From assembly GCA_035268685.1 (NCBI GenBank), contig DATFKK010000170.1, positions 11,708-75,707 on the forward strand: 64,000 nt of DNA. The letters run 5' to 3'. Shown piece by piece: positions 4,001-21,679 of this stretch. This DNA comes from Candidatus Krumholzibacteriia bacterium. GTDB taxonomy: Bacteria; Krumholzibacteriota; Krumholzibacteriia; JAJRXK01. Every line of letters begins with the position of its first letter. Position 1 is the first letter of the stretch. A program made the translations under genes and the position numbers. The notes under the pieces were generated by a model. That model had not been told where the DNA came from, made no database searches, and saw only the letters and a program-made list of their open reading frames with translations.

Positions 4001-4611
4001 CGCGGCGGGACCACCTCGAAGCTCGTGCTCGCGCTGGTCCCGCCCTCGGCGCCGTCGGGCGCGATCTCGACCACGATCCACCGCCAACGACCCGTGCTGT
4101 CCGCGGGGGTCGATTCCGGGGCGCGCACGAGGAGGGTATCGGCGACGACCTCCGTCGCGCGCCGTCGTGCCTGCGCGTCGTAGAGTTCCCACCGATAGGT
4201 GGTTCCCGGTTCGTCGGTCGTGGTCGACCATGTGAAGCGGCGGGGGAAGTGGTCGAACTCGCCCTCGGGCGCGAGCGGCGTGATGGAGCTGCCCGTGCCC
4301 CGCAGACGCGGCGTTCCGTCGTCACCGGGCTCGGTCAACGGGCCGAACACGACGAAGACGACCACCGCGGCCACCGCGGCGACCGCGGCAGCCAGGCGAC
4401 GCGGTGCCCACCGTGTCCGCCGACGCGTCGGCGTCGCGTTCGCGGTCTCCCGCAGAGTCTCGCGCATCGAGATCGCCGCGTACAGTTCCTCGCTCCGCTC
4501 CGGCGATTCGAGCGCGCGCCGCTCCCACGCCCCGCGCTCCGAGCCGGACATGTCGCCGGCAGCCCAGCGTTCGATCGCTTCGTCGTCGTGTCGATCGGGA
4601 TATTCGTTCAC
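3997..4611 (-). CDS. Single-pass transmembrane anti-sigma factor
   Basis: Lies within ORF 3997..5172. Start taken at GTG 4611, which overlaps the sigma stop (GTGA). IERWAAGDMSGSERGAWERRALESPERSEELYAA resembles an anti-sigma N-terminal helix. There is one TM segment (LAAAVAAVAAVVVFVVFGPL) and an extracytoplasmic domain of about 105 aa. No HxxxCxxC zinc motif. Confidence 0.65.
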   Translation of the reverse strand: MNEYPDRHDDEAIERWAAGDMSGSERGAWERRALESPERSEELYAAISMRETLRETANATPTRRRTRWAPRRLAAAVAAVAAVVVFVVFGPLTEPGDDGTPRLRGTGSSITPLAPEGEFDHFPRRFTWSTTTDEPGTTYRWELYDAQARRRATEVVADTLLVRAPESTPADSTGRWRWIVVEIAPDGAEGGTSASTSFEVVPPR

Positions 4612-5135
4612 GGCTGCACCCCCTCGCGCCGCAGGATCTCCTCGAGCTTCTTGCGGCAGCGGTACACGCGCCGGTAGAACACGGCCGGTTCGAGTCCGGC
4701 CCCGGCGGCCAGGTCGGCCGGCCGCTGGCCCTGGGCCATGGCCCACAACCAGCGGGCGCATTCCTCCGACACGGCGCGCAGAGTGGCCAGGGCGGCGTGG
4801 ACCGCGCGGTGGCGGCGTTCGTGGTCGAGCGCGTCGATCGGATCGGGTGCCGTATCGGCGAGGTCGATCGTGTCCACGTCGTCGTGCGAACGTCGCTTCT
4901 GGTACCAGTTGCCGGTCACGTTGCGCAGCACCACGAAACACCAGGCGAGCGGTGGATTCGCGGTTCCTTCGCGCATGGCGATGCCGGGGCCCTTCTCGAG
5001 GACGATGCCCAGGGTCTCCTGGACGACGTCCTCGACCGCGTCGTCCGGGACCCGACGTCCGGCGATCTCGAGCATGCGCGCGCGCAGGGTCGCGAGCCAG
5101 GCGGGGTCGATCGCGGGATCGTCGGCGTCGTGCAT
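4608..5135 (-). CDS. ECF-type sigma-70 family RNA polymerase sigma factor
   Basis: Last 175 codons of ORF 4608..8507, starting MHDADD at 5135. Region 2 is recognisable (AVEDVVQETLGIVLEK .. WCFVVLRNVTGNWYQKRR). So is the region 4 HTH (ECARWLWAMAQGQRPADLAAGAGLEPAVFYRRVYRCRKKL). The rest of the long ORF is the antisense shadow of recC. Confidence 0.85.
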   Translation of the reverse strand: MHDADDPAIDPAWLATLRARMLEIAGRRVPDDAVEDVVQETLGIVLEKGPGIAMREGTANPPLAWCFVVLRNVTGNWYQKRRSHDDVDTIDLADTAPDPIDALDHERRHRAVHAALATLRAVSEECARWLWAMAQGQRPADLAAGAGLEPAVFYRRVYRCRKKLEEILRREGVQP

Positions 5136-5142
5136 CGATCCG

Positions 5143-5176
5143 GTTTGACGGGTGGGGGAGATCTCCCGGCACGATC
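5143..5176 (-). promoter_or_regulatory. Conserved 34-nt motif, copy A, immediately upstream of the ECF sigma gene; candidate autoregulated promoter/operator
   Basis: Plus strand reads GTTTGACGGGTGGGGGAGATCTCCCGGCACGATC, with the perfect palindrome GGGAGATCTCCC. It matches 1577..1610 at 28/34 positions. It ends only 7 nt upstream of the sigma ATG, implying a leaderless or near-leaderless mRNA. Confidence 0.55.
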
Positions 5177-5291
5177 CAGGGTGCGCGGGAGGCGGGCTCC
5201 GGTCAACGCCGCGCCTAGCCCGGTCTCGACCGCCGCGCTGCCGCGCGCTACACTGCGCCGCCCCGAGGCTCCCGTCTCGTACCACCTGCCG

Positions 5292-8200: not shown

Positions 8201-8690
8201 GGCCTACGTGCGGCACGTGATCCTGGGGGCCACGCGCGGTGAGGACGGCCCGCCGCCGTGGGCGACCTGTGTCGTCGCGGCCGAGGGCGCGTTCAAGGTC
8301 CTCACCGATGGGGTCGGAGATCCCATCGCTCTGCTCGACGAGATGATCGCAGGCTTCGTCGAGGGTCAGCGCCGACCCCTGCGGTTCTTCCGACGCAGCA
8401 CGGTGGCGTGGTGCTCGAAGACCCGGGGCGTCGACGATCGCTTCGACCCCGACGTCGCGCGGCACGGTTTCGGCGAGTTGGCCTCGGCCTGGGAGGGAGA
8501 CCACCACGCGCGGGGGGACCGCGGCGACGACGAGGTCACCCTCTGCATGCGGGGCGTGCGGACCTCGGAACTGATCGACGACGACTTCCTGCGTTGGGCG
8601 CGGCTCTTCGATCCGGTCGTCGTCGCGACCAGCGGCCGCAAGAAGGCGAAGTGGCCGCCGGCGTCCGGCGCGAAGGGGGGGACTTCGTGA
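5292..8690 (+). CDS. recC: Exodeoxyribonuclease V gamma subunit RecC
   Basis: ORF 4404..8690 trimmed to MPMTAPPLESGLRLPTSDRLEDLADDLV. The N-terminus matches the RecC pattern (VVVGSRGMSRWLNLLLARDLGIAASVAYPFP). Length is about 1130 aa. It is followed by recB with a GTGA overlap. Confidence 0.85.
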   Translation: MPMTAPPLESGLRLPTSDRLEDLADDLVARLHARPLPPLETETVVVGSRGMSRWLNLLLARDLGIAASVAYPFPFNWARRTTDIVLDRTRNDTADPFGPQALPWRVHAWLGRVEELDLEPDARAPLERYLADDPDRRKRGQLARRVARLFVQYQTLRVPELLRWERGEWFGDDPDESGGEIWQRALWNTLVDEADRPSLARDLDDGIGRLQRGEGIEGLPRRVTLFGLSSVPPVLLSLAEAVSRHREVTIATLTPTREYIGDARPARWQPVEQGDLFDAAKVHPLLAEWGRVGRDLQDQLTELEGIHPEVQRETAPERTVLGQLQQDLLDARMPARADERAAPERVRVRPDDRSLRIHVCHSERREIEVLRDEILRAFEEGVVREPSDVLVLVPDIDRYAPFVRAVFESPRATPAGPVHLPVQVADGRDTDHSDFARFALDLLDHAGGRHTASGVLELLESGPVARRFGLDDVPTSDVHDLVRGAGIRFGRDPVTRAAEHDLPDLDGGTWREGLDRLVLGFALGRSDVTIDGVVPRADATTGRAETVGRLATAVDALFAQLDRLVRPRSLRRWCEDLRSALFALTAADGRTDAALRVDLVRTIEALAEVARDDDTDVARSTFAAALRAQLADDAAGQGFVSGSITVAELRPMRSLPYAMIAVAGLDSDSFPRRDPAEGLDLTRGRPRRGDRSPRADDRQMLLEVLTSARRRLALTAIGMSQRDGTEIARSVCLDELVDVIDASFVVDADPDTKPSAVLTVEHRLQPFHAAYGRDDHPEHFTYARETVDAARALRSRTAERSPFVDSCRVDDGLVRDAEGRALVTVDDLVTFWRNPCRWFVARVLGMALHFDEGDLDDEPFGVDALGKYRIRRWMVDHVDDLPPVDAIVERAEHELGTASGRSGRAHAREVVETTLGRWHDVLASDPRPRTREVDRSGPTWRLTGTLDIDPAQGQVVWTPKPKVEADALIEAYVRHVILGATRGEDGPPPWATCVVAAEGAFKVLTDGVGDPIALLDEMIAGFVEGQRRPLRFFRRSTVAWCSKTRGVDDRFDPDVARHGFGELASAWEGDHHARGDRGDDEVTLCMRGVRTSELIDDDFLRWARLFDPVVVATSGRKKAKWPPASGAKGGTS

Positions 8691-11600
8691 ACGAGACCTC
8701 CCGGAGGTTCGATCCCGTCTGCCAACCCCTCGACCGTTTTCCCCTGTTGATCGAAGCGAGCGCGGGGACGGGCAAGACCTGGTCGTTGACCGCGCTGGCC
8801 ACCCGACTGGTCGTCGAGGGCAGGGTCGCCTCGATCGACCGGTTGCTGCTGGTGACCTTCACCGTGGCCGCAACGCACGAGCTGCGCGAACGTCTGCGCA
8901 CACGTCTCCAGGACACACGGAACGCGTTGATGGGCTGCAAGGTCGACGACGACTTCGTGCAGCGCCTCGTGGAGCGGTGCGACGACCGTGCGCTCGCCCG
9001 CGATCGTGTCCTGCGCGCCCTGCGCGACTTCGACGAAGCACGCGTGAGCACGATCCACGGCTTCTGCGCGCGCGTGCTGCAGGACAGCGCCTTCGAGGCG
9101 GGACTGGTCTTCGAGACCGACGAGACGCAGGACAGCGACTTCCTCCGGCAGGTGGCGGTGGCCGACGCCTGGCGTGCGCAGGTGCAGGCCGGCCCACCCT
9201 GGCGCGCGGCGTGGCTGGCCGAGAAGAGCTACCCGCCGCGCAAGGAAGGGCGGGGTCGTGATCTGTACGCCGACCTGGAGACGCGGCTGCAGTACGACGG
9301 CGCCGAGTTCCTGCCCGCCGTCGAGAGCTCGGTCGACGACGCCGACCGCGAGGTGCGCGGCATCCTCGCCGGTCTCCTGGACGACCCGGGGTTCCTGGAG
9401 TCGTTGCGGGAGGCGGTCGACACGGTGGAACAGGGCCTGGCCGGACGACACCGCGCGCGTTTCGAGGAGTTCCGTCGGATCGTGGACGAGGGCGCCCTGG
9501 CCGACGACGAGACCACCTGGTCGGTTCTCATGGGTCTGCTGCCCGGAAGGATCGAGAAGACCGTCGGCACGAAGCCGCTGAAGAACGAGGTGTGGAAGGC
9601 CGTCGTCGACCGCCTGGAACCGCTGGAGTCCTCTCTGGAGCGCGGATTCGAGGTCCTGCGGCGGGCATTGCTCGAATCGGCGGCCCGGCGCTTCGCCGCG
9701 GCCAAGCAGGCGGCGAACCTGCGCGACTTCGACGACATGATCGGCGAGGTGCACGACCGGCTGATCGACCCCGACACCCGTCGCGCTCTGCGGAACCGCA
9801 TCCGCGGCTCGATCGACGCCGCGCTGGTCGACGAGTTCCAGGATACCGACATTCGTCAGTGGACGATCTTCGAGACGCTCTTCACCGACGCGCCGTTGAT
9901 CCTCGTGGGCGATCCCAAGCAGGCCATCTACGGATTCCGCGGTGCCGACGTCTTCGCCTACCTTCGGGCGCGCGACGCCGCCCGGGCGACCACCTCGTTG
10001 CCCGGCAACCACCGCAGCCATCCCGATCTGGTCGAGACGGTGAACGCGCTCTTCACCGCCGACGGCGCCTTCGCGCTCGACGACCTGCAGTCGGGTCGGG
10101 TGCAGGCCGAGAAGTCGGCCGAGGCCCTGTCGATCGGAGATGGTCGACCGGCGGTGGAATGGATCCGGATCGACGCCGACGGGGCCCGGGAGTTCGGAGG
10201 CACGAAGAAGGACGACTACCGGCGTGCCTCATGTGCCCGGGTGGTCGAGCACACGCAGCGCCTGCTGCGGTCGCGGGTCCCGATCGACGGCGAGAGGGTT
10301 CATCCCGGACACGTGGCCGTGCTCACCCGTTCCCACGCCCAGAGCCGCGAGATGCAGGACACCTTCCGCGAGGCCGGTATCGACGCGATCGTGCGCGGTT
10401 CGGGCGACGTGCGGGCGACCGACGTCGTGGCCGAGGCGGGAGCGGTGCTCGAGGCGGTCCTCGATCCGACCGACACCCGGCGCGTCCGCACCGCGCTGGC
10501 CACGCGACTGTGGGGCGCACCGCTCTCCCGCCTCACGGGACTCGAACACGACGAGCGCGCCATGGCCGACGTCGTGGTCGAACTGGAGGCGTTGCGGGAA
10601 CGCTGGCGGCGCCGCGGCGCGTTCGACGTCCTGTCGTCGATCGTGGCCGAGCGCGAGGTCGAGGTCCGGTGGCTGTCCGAGCGCGACGGCGAGCGCGACG
10701 TCACCGATCTCCGTCACGCCATGGAGTGGATCCACGGCCTCGAGACCGAGCGTGGCCTGCGTCCCGAGGGCACCGTGGCGGCGCTGTGGTCCGAGCGTGA
10801 CGGCGACGAGAACGACGTCACGCGCCTGCGCCTGGAGCGCGACGAGCGCGCGGTGAAGATCGTCACCGCCCACGCGAGCAAGGGGCTGCAGTACCCGGTG
10901 GTGTTCGTGCCCTTCGCGTGGGAGGACCGCCCGGCACGCGCGCCGTGGGTCCACCACGATCCGGACGACCGGACCCGCGTGACCGTGGACTGGCGGACCG
11001 TCGATGCCGACGACGCGTGTCGCGAGCGCGCCGTGGTCGAAGGGCTGTCCGAGGAACTGCGTCTGCTCTACGTGGCGATGACACGGGCGGAGCGCCGCTG
11101 CGTGGTCGTCGACACCGACTTCACGCCCCGGAGTGTCGAGAAGGCCGAACGCCGTTTCTCGCCCCTGCACTGGTTGTTGCACCGGCCCGCACGAGCCGAG
11201 GGCGAATCGACGACGGGCTGGGTGGCCCGCGCGCTCGACGTGCTGAAGGCCGAGCCGGGTTCCGGGAGCCGTCACGAGGAACTCCGTCGCCTGAATTCCT
11301 GCGAGGCCGTCCGGGCCGAGGCGGAACCGACGACAGCCGATGCCGACGACGTCGGCGAACTGCGGGCGCGTGTGCTTCCCGCCGACGTGCGCGGTCGTCT
11401 CGTCCCCTGGTACGTGTCGAGCTTCACGCGCCTGACCCGCGACGTCGACCCAAGCGTCCCGCCCGAGGTCGCGCTCGCCGAACACGACGATCCCGCGGTC
11501 GAAACCACCGCCGCCGTGAGTGCGTCCGTGCCCGAGGGCATCTTCGCCTTCGCTCGTGGTCCCCGCGCCGGTGACTGCCTGCACGAGATCCTCGAGCACA

Positions 11601-12313
11601 GCGACTTCGGCGCCGATCCGGCCGATCCCGATCACCGCGACCGCGTGCGCCGGATCCTCGAGAACCACGACATGCTCCGACCGGCCGCCCACGCCGCCGA
11701 CATCGACCCCTTGCGCGAAGCGGTGGACCTGGTCGCCCGGGTGGGACGTGAACGCGTTCCCGGAGAGGACTTCGAACTCGCCCGGGTCGACGCGGCCCAC
11801 CGTGCGAACGAGTGGAACTTCCGTCTCCCGGTCGATCACCTCGACCTGCCGCGTCTCGCGCGAGCACTGCGCGACCACGCGCCGCGGGACATCGCCGACG
11901 GTCTCGTCGACGAACTGATGGCCCAGCCGGGTCGGCAGGAGGGCGGACTCTTCGGTGGCATCGTCGACCTCGTCTTCGAACACGAAGGTCGGTGGTTCCT
12001 GATCGACTGGAAGAGCAACCACCTCGGCGACGACGTCGACGACTACCATCCCGACGCCGTGCACCGCGCGATGATCGAGCACGCCTACCACCTGCAGTTG
12101 TTGCTGTACCAGGTCGCGCTGCACCGGCATCTGAGCGTGCGTCTCCGGGACTACGACTACGATCGTCACTGCGCCGGGGGCGCCTACGTCTTCCTGCGCG
12201 GACTGTGCGGACGCCCCGACCGGGGCTGGGTGCGGTGGCGGCCCGACCGGGCCCTGGTCGGCGCGGTCGACGCCTGCTTCGCCGTGGCGGCGGTGGAAGG
12301 GGGTGCGCGATGA
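8687..12313 (+). CDS. recB: Exodeoxyribonuclease V beta subunit RecB (helicase-nuclease)
   Basis: GTG start at 8687 overlaps the recC stop. Walker A is LLIEASAGTGKTWSL. UvrD-type helicase motifs are present (VDEFQDTD, VGDPKQAIYGFRGADV). The C-terminal nuclease region contains GGIVDLVFEHEGRWFLIDWKSN. Confidence 0.9.
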   Translation: MNETSRRFDPVCQPLDRFPLLIEASAGTGKTWSLTALATRLVVEGRVASIDRLLLVTFTVAATHELRERLRTRLQDTRNALMGCKVDDDFVQRLVERCDDRALARDRVLRALRDFDEARVSTIHGFCARVLQDSAFEAGLVFETDETQDSDFLRQVAVADAWRAQVQAGPPWRAAWLAEKSYPPRKEGRGRDLYADLETRLQYDGAEFLPAVESSVDDADREVRGILAGLLDDPGFLESLREAVDTVEQGLAGRHRARFEEFRRIVDEGALADDETTWSVLMGLLPGRIEKTVGTKPLKNEVWKAVVDRLEPLESSLERGFEVLRRALLESAARRFAAAKQAANLRDFDDMIGEVHDRLIDPDTRRALRNRIRGSIDAALVDEFQDTDIRQWTIFETLFTDAPLILVGDPKQAIYGFRGADVFAYLRARDAARATTSLPGNHRSHPDLVETVNALFTADGAFALDDLQSGRVQAEKSAEALSIGDGRPAVEWIRIDADGAREFGGTKKDDYRRASCARVVEHTQRLLRSRVPIDGERVHPGHVAVLTRSHAQSREMQDTFREAGIDAIVRGSGDVRATDVVAEAGAVLEAVLDPTDTRRVRTALATRLWGAPLSRLTGLEHDERAMADVVVELEALRERWRRRGAFDVLSSIVAEREVEVRWLSERDGERDVTDLRHAMEWIHGLETERGLRPEGTVAALWSERDGDENDVTRLRLERDERAVKIVTAHASKGLQYPVVFVPFAWEDRPARAPWVHHDPDDRTRVTVDWRTVDADDACRERAVVEGLSEELRLLYVAMTRAERRCVVVDTDFTPRSVEKAERRFSPLHWLLHRPARAEGESTTGWVARALDVLKAEPGSGSRHEELRRLNSCEAVRAEAEPTTADADDVGELRARVLPADVRGRLVPWYVSSFTRLTRDVDPSVPPEVALAEHDDPAVETTAAVSASVPEGIFAFARGPRAGDCLHEILEHSDFGADPADPDHRDRVRRILENHDMLRPAAHAADIDPLREAVDLVARVGRERVPGEDFELARVDAAHRANEWNFRLPVDHLDLPRLARALRDHAPRDIADGLVDELMAQPGRQEGGLFGGIVDLVFEHEGRWFLIDWKSNHLGDDVDDYHPDAVHRAMIEHAYHLQLLLYQVALHRHLSVRLRDYDYDRHCAGGAYVFLRGLCGRPDRGWVRWRPDRALVGAVDACFAVAAVEGGAR

Positions 12314-14139
12314 TCGAAGGGCTGCCCTGGCTGCAGCGCGACGATCTCGATCCCATGGCGCGCGCCTTCGCGCACACCGCGTGGCGTGCGAACGTCGAAC
12401 GGATCGGTCCGCAGCGTGCCGCCACGCTGGCCGCGCTCTGCGCGTTGCTCGTGGTCCAGAGGAGTGGCGGACACGGCGCGATCCATCCCGACGACTGGTC
12501 GTCGGTGCGCGAGCATCCCGATCTGGACGGTGTGGTCCTGCCCGACGTGGCCGCGTGGGAGCATGCGCTCGCCGCATCGCCCTGGGTCGGCGACGGATCG
12601 CAGGCCACACCGCTGGTCCGGCGCACCGACGGCAGCCTCGCCCTGTACCGCGATGATCGCGCCGAGATCGAACTCGCCCGACGGCTGCGTGCGCTCGCCT
12701 CCGACGTCGACGACACTCTGCCCACCCCCGATCGCGTCGAGGCCTTCGGCCGCTTGTTCACGCTGCGCGAACCGACGGGTCCGGCCCTGGCTGCGGCGAC
12801 CGCCCTGCGCTCGCGTCTGACGGTGGTCACCGGCGGGCCGGGCACGGGCAAGACCACGACCGTGATCCGTGTCCTCGCCCTGCTGCTGTCGGCCGATCCG
12901 TCCCTGCGTGTGGCCGTGGCCGCGCCCACGGGAAAGGCAGCGGCGCGCCTGAGCGAATCCTTCGCCGATCAGCGCGCGGGGCTTCCCGTGAGCGATCGCG
13001 TGCGTGCGGCGCTGGATCTTTCCGTGGTGACGGTCCACCGCCTGTTGCGGGCACGCCCGCACGACGGATCCTTCGGTCACGACGCCCGGCGCCCGGTGCC
13101 GCACGACGTGGTCGTGGTCGACGAGGCCTCGATGCTCGACCTCGGTCTGGCCCGGGCGCTCGTCGATGCCTTGCCACCGCGCGCGCGATTGATCCTGTTG
13201 GGAGATCCCGATCAGTTGGCCAGTGTCGACGCGGGGGCGGTGCTCGCCGATCTCGTGGCGGCGCGGACCACGCGTGGCGATCTGCGGTCGCCGGGCTTCG
13301 CGGCCTTCGCACGCCCCTTCTTCGAATCGGAGATCGAGACCGCGGCCGACGTCGACGTCTTCGCCGATGCCACCGTCGAACTCCGGGTGAACCATCGCTT
13401 CGACGCCCAACCGGCGATCGCGCAACTCGCCGAAGCGTTGCGCGCCGGCGAGCCCGATCACGTGCTCGAGGTGCTCGACACCGGCGCGTTCGACGAGGTG
13501 CGGCGCGTGGAACCGGGAGAGACCGCCGACACCCTCGATCCCGTGCTCGACGATTGGCTGCAACACGTTCCCGGTCAGGACGACGGCGACGATCTCGAGC
13601 GTTTGCGCCGGGTCGAGTCGGGGGTGCGCCTGCTGGCCGCGCTGCGCCGCGGGCCGTGGGGAGTGCAGGGATTGAACGCCCGTGTCGAGCGTCGCTTGCG
13701 GCGCCGCGCCGAACGCGCGTGGGACACGACGGAGACGTGGTATCCGGGACGGCCGGTGATGATCCGACGCAACGTCGCCGCCCTGGGCGTGTCGAACGGC
13801 GACCTCGGCGTGTGTGCGCCCGACCGTGAACACGACGGAGAACCCTCGCTGCTCCTTCGCGACTCCACGGGCTCGGTGCGTCGCCTGGCCGTGGCCCGGC
13901 TGCCGGAACACGAGACGGCCTGGGCCATGACCGTGCACAAGTCCCAGGGGTCGGAGGCCGATCACGTCCTGCTCGTGCTGCCGCGGGATCGTCACCCGCT
14001 GCTGACCCGATCCCTGCTGTACACGGGCGTGACGCGGGCGCGACGGTCGGTGACGGTGGTGGGAAGCATCGACGCGATCCGTGCGGCCGTGCGCGCGCGT
14101 GAGCAGCGACGCACGGCCCTTCGGGACCGGCTCCGGTAA
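12310..14139 (+). CDS. recD: Exodeoxyribonuclease V alpha subunit RecD
   Basis: ATG at 12310 overlaps the recB stop (ATGA). Walker A is VVTGGPGTGKTTTV. SF1 helicase motifs are present (VVVDEASMLD, LILLGDPDQLASVDAG, AMTVHKSQGSE). Confidence 0.9.
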   Translation: MIEGLPWLQRDDLDPMARAFAHTAWRANVERIGPQRAATLAALCALLVVQRSGGHGAIHPDDWSSVREHPDLDGVVLPDVAAWEHALAASPWVGDGSQATPLVRRTDGSLALYRDDRAEIELARRLRALASDVDDTLPTPDRVEAFGRLFTLREPTGPALAAATALRSRLTVVTGGPGTGKTTTVIRVLALLLSADPSLRVAVAAPTGKAAARLSESFADQRAGLPVSDRVRAALDLSVVTVHRLLRARPHDGSFGHDARRPVPHDVVVVDEASMLDLGLARALVDALPPRARLILLGDPDQLASVDAGAVLADLVAARTTRGDLRSPGFAAFARPFFESEIETAADVDVFADATVELRVNHRFDAQPAIAQLAEALRAGEPDHVLEVLDTGAFDEVRRVEPGETADTLDPVLDDWLQHVPGQDDGDDLERLRRVESGVRLLAALRRGPWGVQGLNARVERRLRRRAERAWDTTETWYPGRPVMIRRNVAALGVSNGDLGVCAPDREHDGEPSLLLRDSTGSVRRLAVARLPEHETAWAMTVHKSQGSEADHVLLVLPRDRHPLLTRSLLYTGVTRARRSVTVVGSIDAIRAAVRAREQRRTALRDRLR

Positions 14140-14216
14140 GAAGAGCCCGGGTCCCGATGCGACGCACCGGCCCGCCCCGAACGCCCGGAGCGCCCCGGGT
14201 CCACGGAGGACATCGG

Positions 14217-16049
14217 ATGGACACGACCCGATGGAGACAACGAGGACGGCGGTGGCGTCGGAGGCTCCTCCGCTTCGTTCCGCGACGCCACGGTGCGCCC
14301 GTCGAGTGGGTGTACAGCCGCCGGTACGCCGTGGACCTCGACTCTCCGGTCGTCGACCGCCGGCGCGGGCAGCGGGTGCTCACGCAGCTCGACCAGGAGG
14401 GAATCCTCCGGCAGGGCGACCTGCACCGGACGCGCCGCGTATCGCTGCGCAAGCTCCTGCACGTGCACGATCCCGACTATCTGCGGGCCCTCGAGTCGGC
14501 CGACGGTCTGTCGCGAGTGATCGGACACCCCGTCGACGCCGCGGCTGTCGACGACTTCCTGCTCGCCCAGCGGGCCATGGTGGGAGGCACGGTCCTCGCC
14601 GCACGTCTCGCGCTGCGGGACCGGCGCGTCCTCTTCAACCTCGGCGGCGGCCTGCACCACGCCATGCCCGACCGTGGCCAGGGCTTCTGCCTGTTCCACG
14701 ACATCGCGGTGGCCATCGCGCACCTGCGCGATCGCGGCTTCGGCGGCCCGATCCTCGTCGTCGACCTCGACCTGCACGACGGTGAGGGCACGCGCCGGAT
14801 CTTCGCCGACGATCCGACGGTGCACACGCTCTCGATCCACAACCGTCACCTCGACGACGTCGAGGCCGTCGAGTCGACCAGCGTGGAGCTGGGGACCGGC
14901 GTCGGCGACGAGCTCTACCTGCGGACGATCGAGGAGGTCCTGCCGCGCGTGGTGGCCGATGTCCAGCCGGGGTTCGTGTTCTATCTGGCCGGCGCCGATC
15001 CGGCCCACGACGATCGTCTGGGCGACTGGCAGATCAGCCCCGCCGCCATGCTGTACCGGGATCGGAGGGTCATGGAGATCGTCCGCCCGCAGGAGTCGCG
15101 TTTGCCCGTGGTGATCCTCCTCGCCGGCGGCTACGGGCACCAGGCGTGGCGTTACACGGCGCGCTTCGCGACCTGGCTGGCCACCGGTACCGCGGTGGAA
15201 CCGCCGACGACGGCCGCCCTGCCGATCACCGACTACCGGCGCCTGGTGCGCCATCTGAGCGAGCCCATGTTCCTGTCCGAACCCTCGGACGACGACTGGG
15301 GCCTGACCGAGGAGGACATGCCCGGACCGAACTCGATCGCGGCGAAGCGTCTGCTCGGACGTTACACGGTCCACGGAGTCGAACTCGCGCTGGAACGCAT
15401 GGGTTTCCTGCGCAAGGTGCGGTCGTTGGGTTACGAACACGTCATGGTCGAGGCCGACCTGGACAATCCGCTGGGGGACACCCTGCGCGTGGTCGCCGCC
15501 ACCCCGGACCGGCCGGTGATCATGGAGCTGCGCGGTCGGATCGAGTGGAAGATGGTTCCCGGTCTGCGCGTCCTCTTCGTGGAATGGATGCTCAGTCAGA
15601 ATCCACGCTCGGACTTCCCGGCGCACCGGCCGGGACTGTCGGGTCAGAAGCATCCGGGCACCGGCCTTCTGCGCGACGTCGCGAGCCTGCTGCTGCTCGC
15701 CTGCGAGCACCTCGAACTCGACGGGATGGCGTACGTGCCATCGCACGTGGCGCTGGCGGTGCAGTCGGCGGGACTGGCGGGCTTCGTCGACGACGAGTTC
15801 GGTCGGCACTTCCACGCCGCGTTGCGGGCGCTGCGCGGACATCCCTTCCTCGAGCGGGTGCGGCTGCTCGAGGCCGGAGCCGTGGTGGAGCAGCAGACCG
15901 GAGAGCCGATCCGATGGCACCCGACGACCATGTTGGTGCCGGTGAGCGACGCCGCGAAGCGGCGTGTCGATCCGAACTGGACGCTACCGCGCGAGGGCGA
16001 CCCGGTCTACGAGGTCGTGGAGGAACGAGAAACGGGCCGAGCGCTCTGA
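14217..16049 (+). CDS. Histone-deacetylase-family (HDAC/AcuC-like) enzyme fused to a C-terminal domain of about 270 aa, possibly GNAT-like
   Basis: ORF 14157..16049. I prefer the ATG at 14217 because GGAGGA lies 6 nt upstream. HDAC motifs: HDPDYLRAL, GGGLHHAMPDRGQGFCLFHDIAVAI, LVVDLDLHDGEGT. The C-terminal half has GQKHPGTGLLRDV (Q/RxxGxG/A-like) followed by HVALAVQSAGLAGF. Confidence 0.7.
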   Translation: MDTTRWRQRGRRWRRRLLRFVPRRHGAPVEWVYSRRYAVDLDSPVVDRRRGQRVLTQLDQEGILRQGDLHRTRRVSLRKLLHVHDPDYLRALESADGLSRVIGHPVDAAAVDDFLLAQRAMVGGTVLAARLALRDRRVLFNLGGGLHHAMPDRGQGFCLFHDIAVAIAHLRDRGFGGPILVVDLDLHDGEGTRRIFADDPTVHTLSIHNRHLDDVEAVESTSVELGTGVGDELYLRTIEEVLPRVVADVQPGFVFYLAGADPAHDDRLGDWQISPAAMLYRDRRVMEIVRPQESRLPVVILLAGGYGHQAWRYTARFATWLATGTAVEPPTTAALPITDYRRLVRHLSEPMFLSEPSDDDWGLTEEDMPGPNSIAAKRLLGRYTVHGVELALERMGFLRKVRSLGYEHVMVEADLDNPLGDTLRVVAATPDRPVIMELRGRIEWKMVPGLRVLFVEWMLSQNPRSDFPAHRPGLSGQKHPGTGLLRDVASLLLLACEHLELDGMAYVPSHVALAVQSAGLAGFVDDEFGRHFHAALRALRGHPFLERVRLLEAGAVVEQQTGEPIRWHPTTMLVPVSDAAKRRVDPNWTLPREGDPVYEVVEERETGRAL

Positions 16050-16239
16050 CGCCCGGCCCGTTCCGTGAAGGAGTCGGAGGGAGAATCTGCACTCTTCCCG
16101 GCCACGAGCGCTTCTCCTCCCTCCGTGCCGTGCACTATGGGCGAAGCCGTCCCGTATATCCAGTCTTGATTCGTGATATCGCCGATCGTTTCCACTTCGA
16201 GCCGTATCGGGTGGGGGAGGATTTCCTCGATTTTCCCCC

Positions 16240-16268
16240 TGGACAACCAAACATCTGTTTCACATACT
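16240..16268 (+). promoter_or_regulatory. Candidate sigma-70 promoter of the dinB operon (-35 TGGACA, 17-nt spacer, -10 CATACT)
   Basis: TGGACA at 16240-16245 and CATACT at 16263-16268. It lies in a locally GC-poorer 327-bp intergenic region, about 110 nt upstream of the dinB ATG. Confidence 0.45.
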
Positions 16269-16290
16269 GCCGGTCACCAAACAGATGTGT
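16249..16290. promoter_or_regulatory. Two related palindromic operator-like sites (candidate LexA/SOS boxes)
   Basis: AAACAtcTGTTT (16249-16260) sits inside the -35/-10 spacer. AAACAgaTGTgT (16279-16290) is 30 bp downstream. Both are preceded by ACC (gACAACC / gTCACC). lexA is in the operon they precede. Confidence 0.4.
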
Positions 16291-16376
16291 GGTCTCGGGC
16301 CTCCCGGATGGGGAGAAGACGAGGCACGCATCCGACGCCCCACCGGGGGCACCCTCGAATCCGGGATCCGGAGCGC

Positions 16377-17675
16377 ATGCGCCGCAAGTGGTTCGCCCAC
16401 GTCGACATGGACGCATTCTACGCGTCGGTCGAGGTGCTCGACCAGCCCCGACTCGCCGGTCGGCCGATCGCCGTGGGTGGACGCTCCGAGCACCGGGGCG
16501 TGATCGCCGCGGCTTCCTACGCCGCGCGCAGGTTCGGCGTGCGCAGCGCCATGCCCACGGCCGAAGCGCTGCGCCGCTGCCCGGAGCTCGTGCTGATCCC
16601 CGGACGCATGGAGCGCTACGCCGAGAAGAGCCGCGAGGTCATGCAGATCCTGCGGCAGGTCGCGCCCGCGGTCGAACCCCTGTCCCTCGACGAGGCCGCA
16701 CTCGATCTCACCGGCTGTGCCCGTCTGCACGGCGCCGACGTCGAGATCCGGGGCGATCGCCGCGAGGACTGGTCCCGGTTCGCCCTGGAGCTGCGCCGGC
16801 GCATTCGCACGCGCACCGGTCTCTGGTGTTCGATCGGTCTGGGCGAGACCCGACGCATCGCGAAGATCGCCAGTGACCTCCGGAAGCCGCGGGGTGTGGC
16901 CGTGGTGGAGGCCGGCGCCGGCCCGGATTTCTTCTCCGGTCTGCCCATCGAGCGACTGTGGGGCGTCGGTCCCAAGATGCGCGAGCGCCTGCGCGCGGCC
17001 GGAATCCGTACCGTGGCCGATGTCGTCGCCACGCCGCGCCCGGAGCTCGCCGCCCGCTTCGGCAAGGCCGGACCGTTGTTGCACGACGTCGTCCATGCCC
17101 GCGAGACCGGCCGCGTCGATCCCGACCGTCCACACAAGAGCGTCAGCCACGAGACCACGTTCTCCGTCGACCGTACCGGTCTCGAGGAACTCGAGCCGGT
17201 GTTGCAGAGGTTGTCCGACAAGGTCGGGGCACGCCTCCGCCGGGCCGGCCTGGCGGGGCGGGTGATCGTCCTCAAGATCCGCGACCGCGGCTTCCACACC
17301 TTCACCCGTCGGCGCTCCCTGGCCGCGGCCACCGACTCCGACACCACCATCTACGAGACCGGCCGAAGGCTGCTGGAGTCGATGGACTGGGACCGGGTCC
17401 CCGTGCGCCTGATCGGCATCGGGGTCACCGACCTGGCCAGTGTGTCGGCGCAGCAGGGCGACCTGTTCGCCAGCGAGATCGAGCGCGAACGGCCCCGGCT
17501 CGAGCGCGCCCTCGACGCGGTCCACGAACGCTTCGGTGAGGGCGCCATCGGTCACGCCCGCAGCGTGCTCGATCCACTGCGCCGCCGTGACGGCGTGTCA
17601 TGGCTGCCCAGCGCCCCCGCCCCGAGTGCGCCCAGGACGGCCGACGACGACGACTCCGACCCCAGGGAGAACTGA
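16377..17675 (+). CDS. dinB: DNA polymerase IV (Y-family translesion polymerase), catalytic residues intact
   Basis: ORF 16173..17675 trimmed to MRRKWFAHVDMDAFYASVE. Other motifs: SYAARRFGVRSAMP, SLDEAALDLTG. A possible clamp-binding QGDLF lies after the little finger. Confidence 0.9.
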   Translation: MRRKWFAHVDMDAFYASVEVLDQPRLAGRPIAVGGRSEHRGVIAAASYAARRFGVRSAMPTAEALRRCPELVLIPGRMERYAEKSREVMQILRQVAPAVEPLSLDEAALDLTGCARLHGADVEIRGDRREDWSRFALELRRRIRTRTGLWCSIGLGETRRIAKIASDLRKPRGVAVVEAGAGPDFFSGLPIERLWGVGPKMRERLRAAGIRTVADVVATPRPELAARFGKAGPLLHDVVHARETGRVDPDRPHKSVSHETTFSVDRTGLEELEPVLQRLSDKVGARLRRAGLAGRVIVLKIRDRGFHTFTRRRSLAAATDSDTTIYETGRRLLESMDWDRVPVRLIGIGVTDLASVSAQQGDLFASEIERERPRLERALDAVHERFGEGAIGHARSVLDPLRRRDGVSWLPSAPAPSAPRTADDDDSDPREN

Positions 17676-17676
17676 C

Positions 17677-19107
17677 ATGTCCGAGCCCCACCGGATTCCC
17701 CGTGTCCATCTGTCCGAACTCGAATCCGCGCGTGTCCGCGAAGTGGCCACGACTCCCGCGGGTGACCTCGACGCCCTGGCGTTGGAACAGGGACTGCGGG
17801 ACGCGCCGGGCGACGCGGTCCTCTTCGAGTGGGACGAATCCAGCGAGGACGCGGGGTCGGTCGACCTCCGTGGCCTCTACGCCGTGCTCGGTGCGGCGGC
17901 CCGGGCCCAGCGCGTGTTGTTCCCTGCGCGCTGGTTGCCCGTGCGTCGGGCGTCCGACGACGCCGCGAGTGTCCCTGACCCGTCTCCGCGCGTTCTGGCC
18001 TTCGCGCGGAGCGACACGGCTCTCCAACGCCTCTTCGCGGAGGCCACCCCGGAACTCGAGGCCCGCGGACTCGCGCGGCCGGACGAACCGGTGGTGTTGC
18101 TGGGTGTCGAGGGTGATGCGCTCGCGAACGGCGCGGGTTCCGATGCCGCGGAACTGCGCCGTCGTGCCGAGCACTGGATCCAACGGCTGGGCGCCGACCG
18201 CGTGGCCCTGGCCGTCCCCCCGGACTCCGCCGACGACCATCCATTGGCTCGTCTCGCGCGCGACCGGGCTCTGCCCCTGATGGTCCTCGGGGGCGCGCGG
18301 CGCCGGCAGGGTGAGCGCGTCTCGACGCCCATGTTGTGGACCGACTTCCAGCTCGACGTCGAGCACCGTCTGCCCGACGACGAGCAGATCGCCGGACTGC
18401 GCGATCTGCTGCACCGCGGTTCGCTCCTGCGAGAGCGCACCCTCCACGAGCGTCTTCCCTCCTCGTGGCGGGCGCGTCTCGACGCCGAGCTCCGCGCTCT
18501 GTACGCCTGGCACGTCAGTCCGCTGCTGCGGCGGGTGTCGGCGCTCGTGCAGTCGATCGAGTCCGTGGGTGGAAGCCGCGTCGAGGCGCCGCTGCCGGGC
18601 CTGCACTCGGTCACGGCCTACCTGCTGGGTCTGACGGATCGGCGCCCGGTCGAGATGGCGTTCGGCCTGGTGGATCCGGTCGACAGTGCCCGCTCTCTGG
18701 CCGTTGCGCTGCAGTCCTTCGACCGCCGGCTGGTCGTCCACGTCGAGGACCAGGCCTGGCCGGCCCTGGAGGGTCGACTGGCGGCCTGGTCCGAGGCCGG
18801 TCTGCTCGCGCGCTGCGCCCCGACGTCGAATCGGGCGTCGGAGTACTGCTTCAGTGGTCTTCCCCTGGCGCAGCGCGTCGGCGTCCGCCGCGGGCGCGAT
18901 GGCATCGGCGAGGTCGACATCGATCGCGCCGATCAGCGGGCGCTCGGTTGGTTCCACCTGACCTGCCGCCGGCAGGACGTCGTCGAGCGGCCGCTGCCGG
19001 CGTTCGGCGCCGACACCTCCGCGCCGGTCGTCGATCTTTCCGGCTCCCGGTCCCAGCTCGCGCTCGGGCTGGACAGCGATGTCCCGGTCCAGGAGAACAC
19101 CGCGTGA
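17677..19107 (+). CDS. Hypothetical 476-aa protein; looks like a truncated, catalytically dead Pol III alpha (DnaE/DnaE2) N-terminal fragment with a C-terminal clamp-binding-like motif
   Basis: The ATG is 1 nt after the dinB stop (TGAcATG), and its stop overlaps the lexA GTG (GTGA). The N-terminus MSEPHRIPRVHLSELES resembles E. coli DnaE MSEPRFVHLRVHSDYS with PHP histidines lost. HSVTAYLLGLTDRRPVE resembles GSLVAYALKITDLDPLE. The position of catalytic PDFDVDF reads SLAVALQSF. QLALGL lies 11 aa from the C-terminus. Confidence 0.4.
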   Translation: MSEPHRIPRVHLSELESARVREVATTPAGDLDALALEQGLRDAPGDAVLFEWDESSEDAGSVDLRGLYAVLGAAARAQRVLFPARWLPVRRASDDAASVPDPSPRVLAFARSDTALQRLFAEATPELEARGLARPDEPVVLLGVEGDALANGAGSDAAELRRRAEHWIQRLGADRVALAVPPDSADDHPLARLARDRALPLMVLGGARRRQGERVSTPMLWTDFQLDVEHRLPDDEQIAGLRDLLHRGSLLRERTLHERLPSSWRARLDAELRALYAWHVSPLLRRVSALVQSIESVGGSRVEAPLPGLHSVTAYLLGLTDRRPVEMAFGLVDPVDSARSLAVALQSFDRRLVVHVEDQAWPALEGRLAAWSEAGLLARCAPTSNRASEYCFSGLPLAQRVGVRRGRDGIGEVDIDRADQRALGWFHLTCRRQDVVERPLPAFGADTSAPVVDLSGSRSQLALGLDSDVPVQENTA

Positions 19108-19766
19108 CACCTCCCCGTCGCCGCGAGCTCACCGCACGTCAGGAAGACGTCCTGCGCACCCTGGTGCGCTGGATGCGCGAACACGGCTATCCGCCCACCA
19201 TGCGCGAACTCGGCCAGGCCGTCGGTCTGTCGAGCACGCGCAGCGTGTCGGACCACCTGGTCCGCCTCGAGGAAATGGGGTTCATCCGCCGCCGTCGGGA
19301 CCGCTCCCGGGCGATCGAGATCCTGCGGGAACCCGCGGACGCATCTCCGAGCGTCCACGGTTCGCCCGTACTCTCGGACGACCGGGTCGAGGTTCCGATC
19401 GTGGGGGAGGTTGCGGCGGGGAGCCCCATCCTCGCGGCGGAGAACGTCGACGGAATGCTGACCGTCGACTCGGGTCTGGTCCGCGATAGCCGGTCGTACT
19501 TCCTGCGGGTCCGCGGCGAGTCGATGGTGGAGGCCCACATCTGCGACGGCGATCTGGTGCTGATCCAGCCCCAGCAGGAGGCCCGCAACGGGGAGATCGT
19601 CGTGGTGCTGATCGACGACGACGCCACACTCAAGCGCTTCTACCGGCGGGACGGCTACATCGAGCTGAAGCCCGAGAACGAGGGCATGGCCAGCATCATC
19701 GTCACCCCCGAGATGGGCGAGGTCCGGGTGCTCGGTCGTCCGGTCGGGGTGTGGAGATCGATCTAG
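19104..19766 (+). CDS. lexA: LexA repressor (S24 self-cleaving SOS repressor)
   Basis: GTG at 19104. Winged-helix N-terminus: LTARQEDVLRTLVRWMREHGYPPTMRELGQAVGLSSTRSV. Cleavage site VAAG. Catalytic Ser (RVRGESMVEA) and Lys (DATLKRF). Confidence 0.9.
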   Translation: MTPPRRRELTARQEDVLRTLVRWMREHGYPPTMRELGQAVGLSSTRSVSDHLVRLEEMGFIRRRRDRSRAIEILREPADASPSVHGSPVLSDDRVEVPIVGEVAAGSPILAAENVDGMLTVDSGLVRDSRSYFLRVRGESMVEAHICDGDLVLIQPQQEARNGEIVVVLIDDDATLKRFYRRDGYIELKPENEGMASIIVTPEMGEVRVLGRPVGVWRSI

Positions 19767-19869
19767 ACCCCTCGACGAACCCTCTGCGGCCCCTCAGCGG
19801 CCGAGCAGAGCCTCGTGGACGTATGCTTGCGAAGACGGCCGAGCGCCCGTAGCCTGGCTTCTCACAGGC

Positions 19870-19944
19870 GGCCCCATCGTCTAGTGGTTAGGACATCACC
19901 CTTTCAAGGTGAGGACACGGGTTCGATTCCCGTTGGGGCTGCCA
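19870..19944 (+). tRNA. tRNA-Glu (anticodon UUC), CCA encoded
   Basis: GGCCCCATCGTCTAGTGGTTAGGAC .. anticodon stem TCACC/GGTGA with loop CTTTCAA .. T-arm ACGGGTTCGATTCCCGT .. acceptor TGGGGCT-G-CCA. Cloverleaf folded by hand. Confidence 0.85.
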
Positions 19945-19960
19945 TCCCGATCTACGACGA

Positions 19961-19999
19961 GCCGTCGTGGCCGCTCCGCCGGAGCCGCGCCACGGCGGC
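19961..19999. terminator. Long imperfect hairpin between tRNA-Glu and the convergent phosphoesterase gene (possible bidirectional terminator)
   Basis: GCCGTCGTGGC-CGCTCC-gcc-GGAGCCG-C-GCCACGGCGGC followed by TTTCGTCGTT. Confidence 0.4.
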
Positions 20000-20008
20000 T
20001 TTCGTCGT

Positions 20009-21679
20009 TCAGCGCCGCACCTCGAAGATCCTGTGCCCCCGGTGCTCGGTCCCGTACTCGTCGGTCGCCCGCACCTCGATCCGGTGGACGCCGGCATCGA
20101 GACCTTCGGTGGGAAGATCGGCGAACCACAAGTGCGTGGTCGCGACCGGTCCCACCCAACCCTTCATGCTGTCGGCGTGGCGGGCCATGTGCTCGAGCAC
20201 CCAGGGATCCTCCCGCACCTCACGCTCCATCTCGACCCAGGGACCGTCGTCGACACGCATCGCGACGCGTGAGCGCGGACCACCGTTGAACAGGTTCACG
20301 TACACGTCGGTCGAGGGCAGTTCGTCGAAGAGCAAGGGACCGACCTGCAGCTCGCCGGGACGGTAGGACTCGAGCAGCGCCACACCGAGTTGGTGGTAGG
20401 CGCGGTCGAAGCCGATCCGCATCTGGTGATCGGCTGGGTGCCCCGCCGCGCGGTAGTGTGCCACCGCCTCGTTGGCGTCGATCGACAGGATCGTGTAGCC
20501 GTTCGGCACGCCGTCGCGCTGCACGGTCACGGGCACGCCGCGCTCGTCGTGCGGGCCGGTCCACCAGCTCCCGCAGACGGTGGCCAGCACGTGATGGTGC
20601 AGCGGCTCGTCGCCCGGCCAATCGTCGGACTCGTCGAAGTGGTGGTGCTCCACGAGATGCGTGTGGCCGGCGAACGAGAGCACGTGGTCGCGCTCGCCGA
20701 GGATCCTGAACAGCCGATCGCGATCGAGCACGTTGATGTACGGCGCTTCGGGATCGACGTGGCTGCGCAGGGGGATGTGCATGGTCACCACGACGAGGTG
20801 ATCGCCGGGAACCAGCGCCAGGTCGGCTTCGAGCCAGTCGAGTTGACGCTCGGACAATCCGCCGTAATAGCCGCCGGCACCCCGCACGGGAGCGTCCTCT
20901 TCGCCGCGGCTCGTGCCACGGTAGACCACGTCGTCGAGCACGACGAAGTGGGCACGGCCGTAGGTGAACGAATAGGTCGTCGGACCGAGGTAGCGCTGGA
21001 AGGTCGCGAGCGAGTGCTCGTCGTCGGGCGACAGGAAGTTCAGCTCGTGGTTGCCGGGGACGTTGTACCAGGGCACGCCCAGGGCCCCGAGCAGATCGAG
21101 GTAGCGCGGGAACAGCGAGAGGTCGTCGTAGAGGAAGTCGCCCAGGGTCATGCCGAACGCGGCGTCGGTACCCGCCAGCTCGTTCAACACGTCCTCGCGG
21201 ATGTAGTCGAGTTCGACGTGGCTCTGCGGCTGGGTGTCGGCGAAGAGGATCACGTCGAAGGATTCGGGTTCGTCCACGGGCACCAGACCGAAGTCGATGG
21301 AATCGGGCAGAGGGCCGGTGGGCGCCAGGCCCGGATACGCCAGATCGAGTTCGGCGGGCGTGCCCTCGGGCCGGTGCACGTGGTAGAAGCGCGGCACGCC
21401 GTTCGGCGCGAGCTGCGTGCGGTAGCCGCTCGGCTTGACGACGAAGATCACGTCGCCCTCCTCGACCTCGAGTTGCCATCGCCCCTGTGCGTCGGTGGTG
21501 ACCACGCGATGGCCGTTGCTCACGGCCACGTCGGCGAGTCCGGCCTCGCCGGTGTCACGGCGGCCGTCGGCATCGGCGTCGACGTACACGTGGCCGCGGG
21601 CGGTCTCGGCCGCGGTGACCGCGGTGGGGGCACAGGACACGAGGGCGAGCACGCACAGGGTGCGCAGCGTTCTGGTCAT
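20009..21679 (-). CDS. Secreted calcineurin-like metallophosphoesterase
   Basis: Signal peptide MTRTLRTLCVLALVSCAPTAVTAA. Motifs: ILFADTQ, GDFLYDD, VPGNHELNF, VVTMHIPL, FAGHTHL. Confidence 0.8.
   Translation of the reverse strand: MTRTLRTLCVLALVSCAPTAVTAAETARGHVYVDADADGRRDTGEAGLADVAVSNGHRVVTTDAQGRWQLEVEEGDVIFVVKPSGYRTQLAPNGVPRFYHVHRPEGTPAELDLAYPGLAPTGPLPDSIDFGLVPVDEPESFDVILFADTQPQSHVELDYIREDVLNELAGTDAAFGMTLGDFLYDDLSLFPRYLDLLGALGVPWYNVPGNHELNFLSPDDEHSLATFQRYLGPTTYSFTYGRAHFVVLDDVVYRGTSRGEEDAPVRGAGGYYGGLSERQLDWLEADLALVPGDHLVVVTMHIPLRSHVDPEAPYINVLDRDRLFRILGERDHVLSFAGHTHLVEHHHFDESDDWPGDEPLHHHVLATVCGSWWTGPHDERGVPVTVQRDGVPNGYTILSIDANEAVAHYRAAGHPADHQMRIGFDRAYHQLGVALLESYRPGELQVGPLLFDELPSTDVYVNLFNGGPRSRVAMRVDDGPWVEMEREVREDPWVLEHMARHADSMKGWVGPVATTHLWFADLPTEGLDAGVHRIEVRATDEYGTEHRGHRIFEVRR

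Follow-up and report, generated by a model that had tools for sequence, protein, structure and literature searches.

Background

SOS-inducible mutagenesis modules act as drivers of stress-induced mutation and of evolving drug resistance. They are known in the form of DNA polymerase (Pol) V, the system of ImuA, ImuB and DnaE2, plus the variants listed in catalogues of 2019 and 2026. ImuA-ImuB-DnaE2 is a LexA-regulated cassette which combines an inactive Y-family protein, ImuB, with an active C-family polymerase, DnaE2. In general, wherever a C-family polymerase belongs to a known module, that polymerase is active. Here, a three-gene operon with the apparently opposite division of roles is described in a 64,000-nt stretch of DNA from a Candidatus Krumholzibacteriia bacterium (contig DATFKK010000170.1; the whole stretch is called the window below, and positions refer to it). 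The operon, dinB-X-lexA, lies at 16377-19766 on the + strand and encodes a Y-family polymerase, DinB, an unannotated protein, here called X, which is modelled as a reduced Pol III alpha subunit, and the SOS repressor LexA. With a probability of a little over one half (about 0.55), it is read as a LexA-autoregulated, translationally coupled SOS operon in which X would be held on the clamp and serve DinB as a non-catalytic partner within a translesion module.

With ImuA-ImuB-DnaE2 the locus would share a damage-inducible multi-gene cassette under LexA control (both here predicted), the pairing of a Y-family with a C-family protein, the fact that one of the pair is dead and bears a clamp-binding motif, and the possible inclusion of lexA in the cassette. 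The difference is that here the Y-family member appears to be active, whereas the C-family member is probably dead and has been cut down to PHP and palm. In addition, clamp-type motifs occur on both proteins, there is neither an imuA or RecA-like gene nor an ImuB-C domain, and the DnaE2 and DnaE sequence models do not detect X.

In Bacteroidetes, PolY-DnaE2 operons are found, "often" with lexA (PMC6511836; PMC8565304). Their DnaE2B-PolY-RecA module, as in Cellulophaga algicola (PMC6511836, PMC12926913), resembles the present operon in that an active PolY stands beside a C-family gene, ImuA and ImuB-C are missing and lexA is often included; its PolY carries a RecA-NT-type motif, to which a RecA-NT-like stretch in the present DinB corresponds with weak alignment (P=0.047). 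Unlike X, however, the DnaE2 of this module is full-length and apparently active, while X retains about 430 structured residues, has no active site in its model and bears a new clamp-type motif. Since the DnaE2 of Bacteroidetes also shows a reduced PHP domain and thumb (PMC3919608), the hypothesis that X may descend from DnaE2B is an attractive one, X being the extreme case in the same direction.

Another likeness is that to UmuD'2 of Pol V and to the YqjX/YolD system of B. subtilis, where a small, non-catalytic partner is encoded beside an SOS-regulated Y-family polymerase which has a conserved tail at its C-terminus and carries a RecA-NT motif. Those partners are SH3-like beta-barrels of other size and without a clamp-binding motif, in contrast with the PHP and palm of X.

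The bacterial polymerase surveys of 2013, 2019 and 2026 distinguish DnaE1-3, PolC, DnaE2A/B/X and 11 mutasome-type modules, including the active PolY with full-length DnaE2 of Bacteroidetes, and contain no module with a polymerase-dead C-family member. Their pipelines discarded truncated sequences and fragments without an intact active site, and the 2026 survey covered complete genomes only. A full-text literature search gave no description of such a protein or operon, and among the literature matches listed for the phylum no study of the SOS response in Krumholzibacteriota was found. The first-pass annotation of the window, made from the letters alone, had not recognised the arrangement as a described one, in agreement with these comprehensive surveys.

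Fold and sequence family of X

The AlphaFold2 model of X, built with an alignment of 36 family sequences, has a mean predicted local distance difference test (pLDDT) of 80.4 and a predicted template modelling score (pTM) of 0.77, low confidence being found only in the last ~35 residues and in a linker at about 205-235. When the full model was compared with the PDB by Foldseek, the best 20 matches were all C-family polymerases, among them M. tuberculosis DnaE1 (7pu7, E=1.3e-11), Pol III alpha of Thermus (2hpi/4iqj/3e0d), E. coli alpha (2hnh, template modelling (TM) score of 0.48 on the query) and PolC (3f2c). The PHP-only alpha-epsilon chimera 4gx8/4gx9 matched over 228 columns (E=1.4e-5), and the best 16 matches in BFVD were all phage DnaE, with E down to 1.4e-10. 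Identity to the C-family matches was 9-15% for full-length chains and up to 18% for the PHP-only chimeras. When residues 236-440 were modelled separately (pLDDT 90, pTM 0.85), this C-terminal half again had the palm of Pol III alpha, from Taq and M. tuberculosis, as its best match: 2hpi (E=0.02, probability 0.99), 7pu7 (probability 0.99, TM 0.51) and 5lew (TM 0.53), with query TM scores of 0.47-0.53 overall. Its lower matches, of low probability, were Pol beta, Pol lambda and small alarmone synthetases, all of which share the Pol-beta-type nucleotidyltransferase palm.

The modelled chain is thus a PHP fold followed by a Pol-beta-like palm, as in C-family polymerases, and at the fold level it is clearly borne out that X would be a reduced PHP domain plus a palm descended from such an enzyme. 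The proposal of the first-pass annotation that the middle gene is a Pol III alpha fragment is upheld in this sense, although it was a close call, as the homology is invisible to sequence searches and visible by fold. No match to X was obtained in Pfam and NCBIfam (both at E<=1), PHROGs or PADLOC, among plasmids by tblastn, or in PDB sequences, whether X was used as a single sequence or as the 36-sequence profile. None of the 36 family members matches PHP (PF02811) or DNA_pol3_alpha (PF07733), and only four unrelated families scored for them, all with E of at least 0.045. An index of 5.8 billion proteins holds 46 relatives of X, all unnamed or called "hypothetical protein" and none with a Pfam domain, while 1.84 billion cluster representatives, searched exhaustively with a HMMER profile, yielded 16 proteins, all of them members or fragments of the X family and no DnaE among them. 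At the level of sequence models, the X family stands alone.

A map of X on E. coli alpha was obtained with hhalign, using a profile that combined the N-terminal regions of 15 DnaE/DnaE2 sequences, taken from genes of E. coli and of plasmids. The alignment is collinear over 415 columns, from X 25-445 to E. coli alpha 21-591, and weak (E=0.003, probability 10%); with the single sequence of E. coli DnaE as template, only a local match remained (E=0.036). Because of these weak statistics it was used only as a map agreeing with the fold result. On this map, X 30-204 falls on the PHP domain, the helical insert at its end being missing; FQLDxEHRLPDD (X 224-235) falls on the palm start; and X 263-330 falls on E. 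coli 320-386, including SVTAYLLGLTDRRP of X opposite SLVAYALKITDLDP of E. coli, which is also the sole match with the single-sequence template. The thumb (E. coli 433-510) is a gap in X, whose structured part, of ~433 residues, ends after the last palm strand, the alignment running out at about residue 591 of E. coli alpha.

FQLDxEHRLPDD (window 18346-18381) is the most conserved stretch of X, with invariant F, D, E, R, P and D; in the model it forms a linker of low confidence that joins the PHP-like part to the palm-like one. The idea that WTDFQLDxEH represents the last PHP motif (NDxH) was dropped, as the profile alignment places this segment at the palm start (E. coli VRLGEYFLPQF).

Beyond the palm, X ends in a disordered tail (pLDDT <50) which is variable except for the hexapeptide QLALGL. 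Its Q460 and L461 are invariant in 36 sequences, and the pattern QL.[LF].[LF] is found in all of the 22 loci compared in this work, that is, the window, 9 loci from a one-genome-per-species scan and 12 distinct metagenome-contig loci. QLxLxL is one form of the beta-clamp-binding motif, E. coli Pol IV providing an example with QLVLGL. As the domain with which full-length alpha binds the clamp is gone from X, the peptide of X would have been newly acquired.

The family keeps a length of 444-527 residues down to 40% identity, with 55 columns invariant among 36 sequences. Seven pairs were compared for the ratio of nonsynonymous to synonymous substitution rates (dN/dS): six gave values of 0.15-0.33, and the remaining, more diverged pair gave 0.475. 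X is a real gene under purifying selection. X is, in fact, shorter than every characterised C-family polymerase, and its fold matches include short phage "DnaE" proteins of 466-652 residues, so that it might be thought a decaying dnaE2 relic, or the N-terminal half of a split active DnaE as in some phages, with no function of its own; this purifying selection, the steady length and invariant columns, the gain of a new conserved C-terminal motif, the missing catalytic aspartates and the finding that no C-terminal polymerase half adjoins X in any of the 22 loci make such a reading highly improbable.

Short phage DnaE proteins are regarded as components of phage replicases that are active. Those in BFVD, such as that of Pseudomonas phage PA5, are like X in their similar length and in representing the same N-terminal part of Pol III alpha, and unlike X, which is chromosomal, lies in an SOS operon and lacks the catalytic residues. 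The short phage "Pol III alpha" proteins matching this part come from Pseudomonas phage PA5 (466 residues), Cellulophaga phage phiST (525 residues) and Corynebacterium phage P1201 (652 residues), and may be split polymerases.

Loss of the catalytic features

The aspartates D401 and D403 of E. coli alpha, conserved in 14-15 of the 15 profile sequences, have no counterpart in X in the weak, approximate alignment, and D555 aligns, with the same approximation, with T429, a variable column (E24 T6 R3 Q1). In the model, no strand is formed between the helices 326-330 and 334-347, the expected place of the PDFDVDF strand. FDRR of X was considered as a remnant of PDFDVDF and rejected, as alignment and secondary structure both assign it to the strand that follows the helix (E. 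coli YGRDAV).

An active proofreader requires the metal site of the PHP domain, although a protein can belong to the C family without it. In X, its ligand columns are unaligned or replaced (D43 by W52, D201 by G206), and the family has no invariant His, H230 being the sole near-invariant one. The canonical site consists of nine residues, HHDHEH[C/H]DH, of which five or six His are needed (PMC12926913). Furthermore, X has, by its length alone, no room for the fingers, the (HhH)2 clamp-binding domain and the OB fold, which are missing. Compared with the N-terminal regions of Pol III alpha and DnaE1 (7pu7, 2hpi, 4iqj, 2hnh), its best fold matches over PHP and palm, X would therefore lack the catalytic Asp triad, the PHP metal site, the thumb, the fingers, (HhH)2, the OB fold and the tau-binding domain. 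The view that X is catalytically dead is supported by these models, and the first-pass description of a truncated, apparently inactive C-family fragment appears correct, with fingers, thumb and C-terminal domains gone, two aspartates unmatched, the third not conserved and the PHP ligands lost, yet this is visible only through structure.

A remodelled site could still make X an enzyme, for instance a phosphoesterase, nuclease or nucleotidyltransferase processing damaged termini for DinB, with the invariant D227-x-E229-H230-R231 loop, D147 or D174-R175 as candidate residues. The many invariant Asp, Glu and Arg of the family and the strong conservation of FQLDxEHRLPDD would suit an enzyme, as would the fact that PHP and Pol-beta-type palm are both catalytic scaffolds and that small alarmone synthetases occur among the weak fold matches to the C-terminal half. 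Nevertheless, those non-polymerase matches have probabilities <0.2, the conserved DxEH loop is modelled as a low-confidence, unstructured linker, the canonical PHP ligand set is absent and reduced to one near-invariant His, the strand with the pair of catalytic Asp has been lost and the position of the third one varies, so that residual enzymatic activity is considered improbable.

DinB and LexA

DinB matches the Pfam families IMS, IMS_C and IMS_HHH and passes the NCBIfam equivalog model of Pol IV (376 bits against a cut-off of 371). Its residues D10, D12, D105 and E106 align with D8, D10, D103 and E104 of E. coli Pol IV and are kept in 11/11 aligned orthologues; the catalytic residues are thus intact, as the first reading of the sequence had indicated, and the best explanation is that DinB would be the sole catalytic polymerase of the module. 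The gene is constrained (pairwise dN/dS 0.09-0.23).

Three C-terminal motifs, all of them after the little finger, are listed in Table 1. The first, QGDLF, fits the QxxLF clamp-binding consensus. The second could be placed on residues 5-29 of E. coli RecA by hhalign, weakly (P=0.047, the reversed control giving 0.61), and the Pfam scan of DinB returned no DUF4113; the RecA-NT motif class was defined by Timinskas and Venclovas (PMC6511836). Only ~38 residues follow this RecA-NT-like motif, with no ImuB-C domain, and they form an acidic tail, variable apart from a Trp peptide, which is a candidate for binding a partner. As regards the clamp, X and DinB both show the conserved motif expected of clamp-binding proteins, that of X in an exposed disordered segment, and both are predicted to bind it. 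The two proteins also differ in charge, DinB being basic (isoelectric point (pI) 10.1) and X acidic (pI 5.5) and devoid of Lys, which suits a protein partner for X better than a DNA-binding core.

LexA is a canonical repressor, scoring 215 bits on TIGR00498 (cut-off 111) and matching Pfam LexA_DNA_bind and Peptidase_S24. Its A105-G106, S140 and K177 correspond to A84-G85, S119 and K156 of E. coli, and therefore both the cleavage site and the Ser/Lys dyad are kept; pairwise dN/dS of lexA is 0.01-0.26.

Operon structure and predicted regulation

The three genes are arranged and coupled as had been annotated, the junctions being read directly from the sequence (Table 1). The TGA of dinB (17673-17675) is separated by one base from the ATG of X (17677) in TGAcATG, while in GTGA the TGA of X (19105-19107) overlaps the GTG of lexA (19104-19106). 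A GGAG-type Shine-Dalgarno sequence precedes each of the three starts, that of lexA within the last codons of X, where it coincides with a conserved Glu close to the end of the protein.

Table 1. Coordinates of the features of the dinB-X-lexA locus in the window
Feature	Position	Strand	Description
Sigma-70-like promoter	16240..16268	+	TGGACA (-35), 17-nt spacer, CATACT (-10); promoter scan
Putative LexA operator 1, AAACATCTGTTT	16249..16260		Context CCAAAC-N4-GTTTC; inside the promoter spacer
Putative LexA operator 2, AAACAGATGTGT	16279..16290		One mismatch; just 3' of the -10, 30 bp from box 1
dinB	16377..17675	+	Predicted active Y-family DNA polymerase IV, 432 residues
DinB clamp-binding-type motif QGDLF	17454..17468	+	Putative; residues 360-364; Q[GA][DE]LF in 11/11 aligned orthologues
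DinB RecA-NT-like motif, PRLERALDAVHERFGEGAIGHA	17493..17558	+	Residues 373-394; P.LE..LD.VH.RFG..AIG.A in 11/11 aligned orthologues
DinB tail Trp peptide RDGVSWL	17586..17606	+	Residues 404-410; D..ASWE in relatives; Trp kept in 10/11 aligned tails
Gene X	17677..19107	+	476 residues; predicted polymerase-dead C-family (Pol III alpha) remnant; new unannotated family
X, reduced PHP-like domain without the metal-ligand set	17698..18288	+	Residues ~8-204; Foldseek 4gx8/4gx9; hhalign X 30-204 = E. coli alpha 22-200
X, Pol III alpha palm-like domain	18382..18975	+	Residues 236-433; modelled with thumb excised and catalytic Asp strand deleted; separate AlphaFold2 model
X clamp-binding-type hexapeptide QLALGL	19054..19071	+	Putative; residues 460-465; in the disordered C-terminal tail
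lexA	19104..19766	+	Canonical self-cleaving SOS repressor, 220 residues, GTG start

The promoter listed is the sole sigma-70-like one in 15900-20100, shuffled controls giving a mean of 0.1 sites. A comparable promoter, TTGACA-17-TAAATT, was read by eye at the related locus L004, also with box 1 within the spacer. A terminator-like site inside dinB (16910-16923) was judged a chance match, as shuffles gave a mean of 0.8. The same region was scanned for terminators between lexA and the following tRNA-Glu (TTC) gene (19870-19944, +, 104 nt 3' of lexA), and none was found; nor is there any RecA-like open reading frame (ORF), as an imuA would be, between the promoter and this tRNA in the operon of the window. 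The three genes are probably co-transcribed, and the single upstream promoter with the repressor as last gene of the transcript, proposed in the first-pass annotation, is supported in silico as well as by conservation.

Palindromes overlap this promoter and lexA lies inside the operon, which makes LexA regulation a candidate reading of the sequence. The exact form AAAC-N4-GTTT, which resembles the GAAC-N4-GTTC LexA box of Gram-positive bacteria, occurs once in the window, as box 1, against 0.08-0.11 expected. In 264.6 kb of related DNA, 27 exact matches were observed where base composition predicts ~0.45, and all 27 sit 20-230 bp upstream of the operon. The distal box 1, CCAAAC-N4-GTTT(C/G), is present exactly or with one mismatch in 22/22 loci, and 19 of them have a second box 24-38 bp, mostly 28-32 bp, downstream of it. 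LexA would be expected to bind these boxes.

Conservation of the operon

The dinB-X-lexA order, first seen on this one contig, is not limited to it, being found in 20 of the 22 loci, drawn from various genomes and metagenomes, while X-lexA is kept in all 22. The named loci belong to Candidatus Krumholzibacteriota/Krumholzibacteriia (7/9 genome-scan loci). The gap between dinB and X ranges from -14 to +2, and that between X and lexA from -4 to +28.

Proposed mechanism and its alternatives

The preferred reading, in which X would assist DinB as a non-catalytic partner, can be set out as follows. In uninduced cells, LexA dimers would occupy the two AAAC-N4-GTTT operators, one in the spacer between -35 and -10 and the other directly following the -10. 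Upon DNA damage, LexA would be driven to self-cleavage by RecA filaments, and the operon would be derepressed. The overlapping stops and starts would then deliver DinB, X and new LexA together, the new LexA in turn shutting the system off. DinB would act as the catalyst, with its clamp-binding-type and RecA-NT-like motifs, and X as an accessory subunit (scaffold or polymerase manager), tethered to the clamp through its C-terminal QLxLxL. The PHP-like domain of X may hold the conserved, acidic, Trp-containing tail of DinB, and its role would mirror that of dead ImuB organising active DnaE2, with the families swapped. The DinB-X partnership itself is an inference, ImuB being its strongest analogy.

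A more specific version is offered tentatively and held at clearly below even odds. In this, X would be the hub of a role-reversed mutasome, where a dead C-family remnant tethers an active, RecA-binding Y-family polymerase to the clamp, the PHP-like domain holding the tail of DinB and QLxLxL occupying one clamp pocket. In the model of the M. tuberculosis mutasome, the PHP domain of DnaE2 is the main interface to the C-terminal domain of ImuB (PMC12926913), and therefore the PHP-palm part retained by X is plausibly an interaction platform.

Several points weigh against a partnership of X with DinB, or against parts of it. Two loci, L009 (5879-8048) and L035 (2957-5044), keep X-lexA and the AAAC-N4-GTTT box with no adjacent dinB, the genes upstream of X being unrelated and on the opposite strand. 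Moreover, in the closest relative of the window (L001, 87% identity in X) dinB has an in-frame TGA at codon 306 (5619-5621), where the window has TTC. This locus belongs to a metagenome-assembled genome (MAG) at 5.6x coverage and the remainder of its dinB shows a dN/dS of 0.09, so the stop may be either a recent pseudogene or an assembly error. In view of these three loci, X may not depend on this DinB. As to the parts, the homology of X to Pol III alpha comes from a predicted structure and a weak hhalign alignment, on which the active-site columns are mapped approximately; the patterns of clamp-binding motifs are short; the RecA-NT assignment of the DinB motif is weak, as given above; and LexA binding to the boxes is predicted, as is co-transcription.

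The main rival, favoured by the two dinB-less loci, is that X acts independently of DinB, either as an SOS-induced mimic of alpha which, on the beta clamp or an alpha partner, pauses or remodels the replisome, or as a partner or modulator of LexA, the link to dinB being one of co-regulation only. The unbroken adjacency of X and lexA in the 22 loci, with the stop of X overlapping the start of lexA in most of them, would suit this, together with the clamp-binding-type motif that X itself owns, the retained PHP and palm surfaces of alpha and the stop in L001. However, the tight dinB/X junction is kept in 20/22 loci spanning 41-87% identity in X, and DinB has a conserved extra C-terminal peptide without an assigned partner. 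Furthermore, dinB of L009 and L035 could lie elsewhere in the genome, and the L001 stop, found at low coverage in a gene which still shows a dN/dS of 0.09, carries less weight. On balance an independent X is regarded as unlikely, and a residual enzyme or a functionless relic as much less likely still.

Genomic context

A recC-recB-recD cluster lies directly upstream (4404-14139, +), with Exonuc_V_gamma/RecC_C, UvrD-helicase plus PDDEXK, and RecD_N/AAA_30 domains; its limits are those of the longest ORFs, which overlap one another. A RecD-like gene is also found upstream of the operon in L013. Between this cluster and dinB, a 630-residue protein is encoded (14157-16049, +), in which a histone-deacetylase-family domain covers residues 68-336 only, the C-terminal half being without assignment. 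A gene of this family is the upstream neighbour in 8 of the 12 metagenome loci with called genes (L011, L013, L026, L027, L029, L030, L031 and others), and in the window the promoter and operators stand between it and dinB. Elsewhere in the window, two tandem transporter genes of the AcrB/AcrD/AcrF (RND) family, of 1192 and 1079 residues, are found at 51018-57832 (+), and an 870-residue protein, in which TPR repeats are combined with a CHAT domain at the C-terminus, at 1619-4231 (-).

Implications

The models support the descent of the X family, a new one, from Pol III alpha, and the operon would be a new form within the known class of SOS translesion modules. It would mean that selection can maintain, next to an active DinB and the SOS repressor, a replicative-type polymerase which has been pared down to PHP and palm, has lost catalysis and has acquired a new peptide of clamp-binding type. 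It also means that functional proteins derived from polymerases can be overlooked where a survey discards fragments whose active site is not intact.

If the hub reading proved true, X would be the first recognised conserved polymerase-dead C-family protein family, and the principle that one dead polymerase scaffolds one live polymerase would have evolved twice, with the families swapped. In turn, if the partnership with DinB is true, X would represent an additional class of polymerase manager and a natural minimal construct in which the contribution of PHP and palm to mutasome assembly could be studied apart from catalysis, and the operon, with its candidate operator AAAC-N4-GTTT, would give a first in silico view of SOS regulation in Candidatus Krumholzibacteriota.

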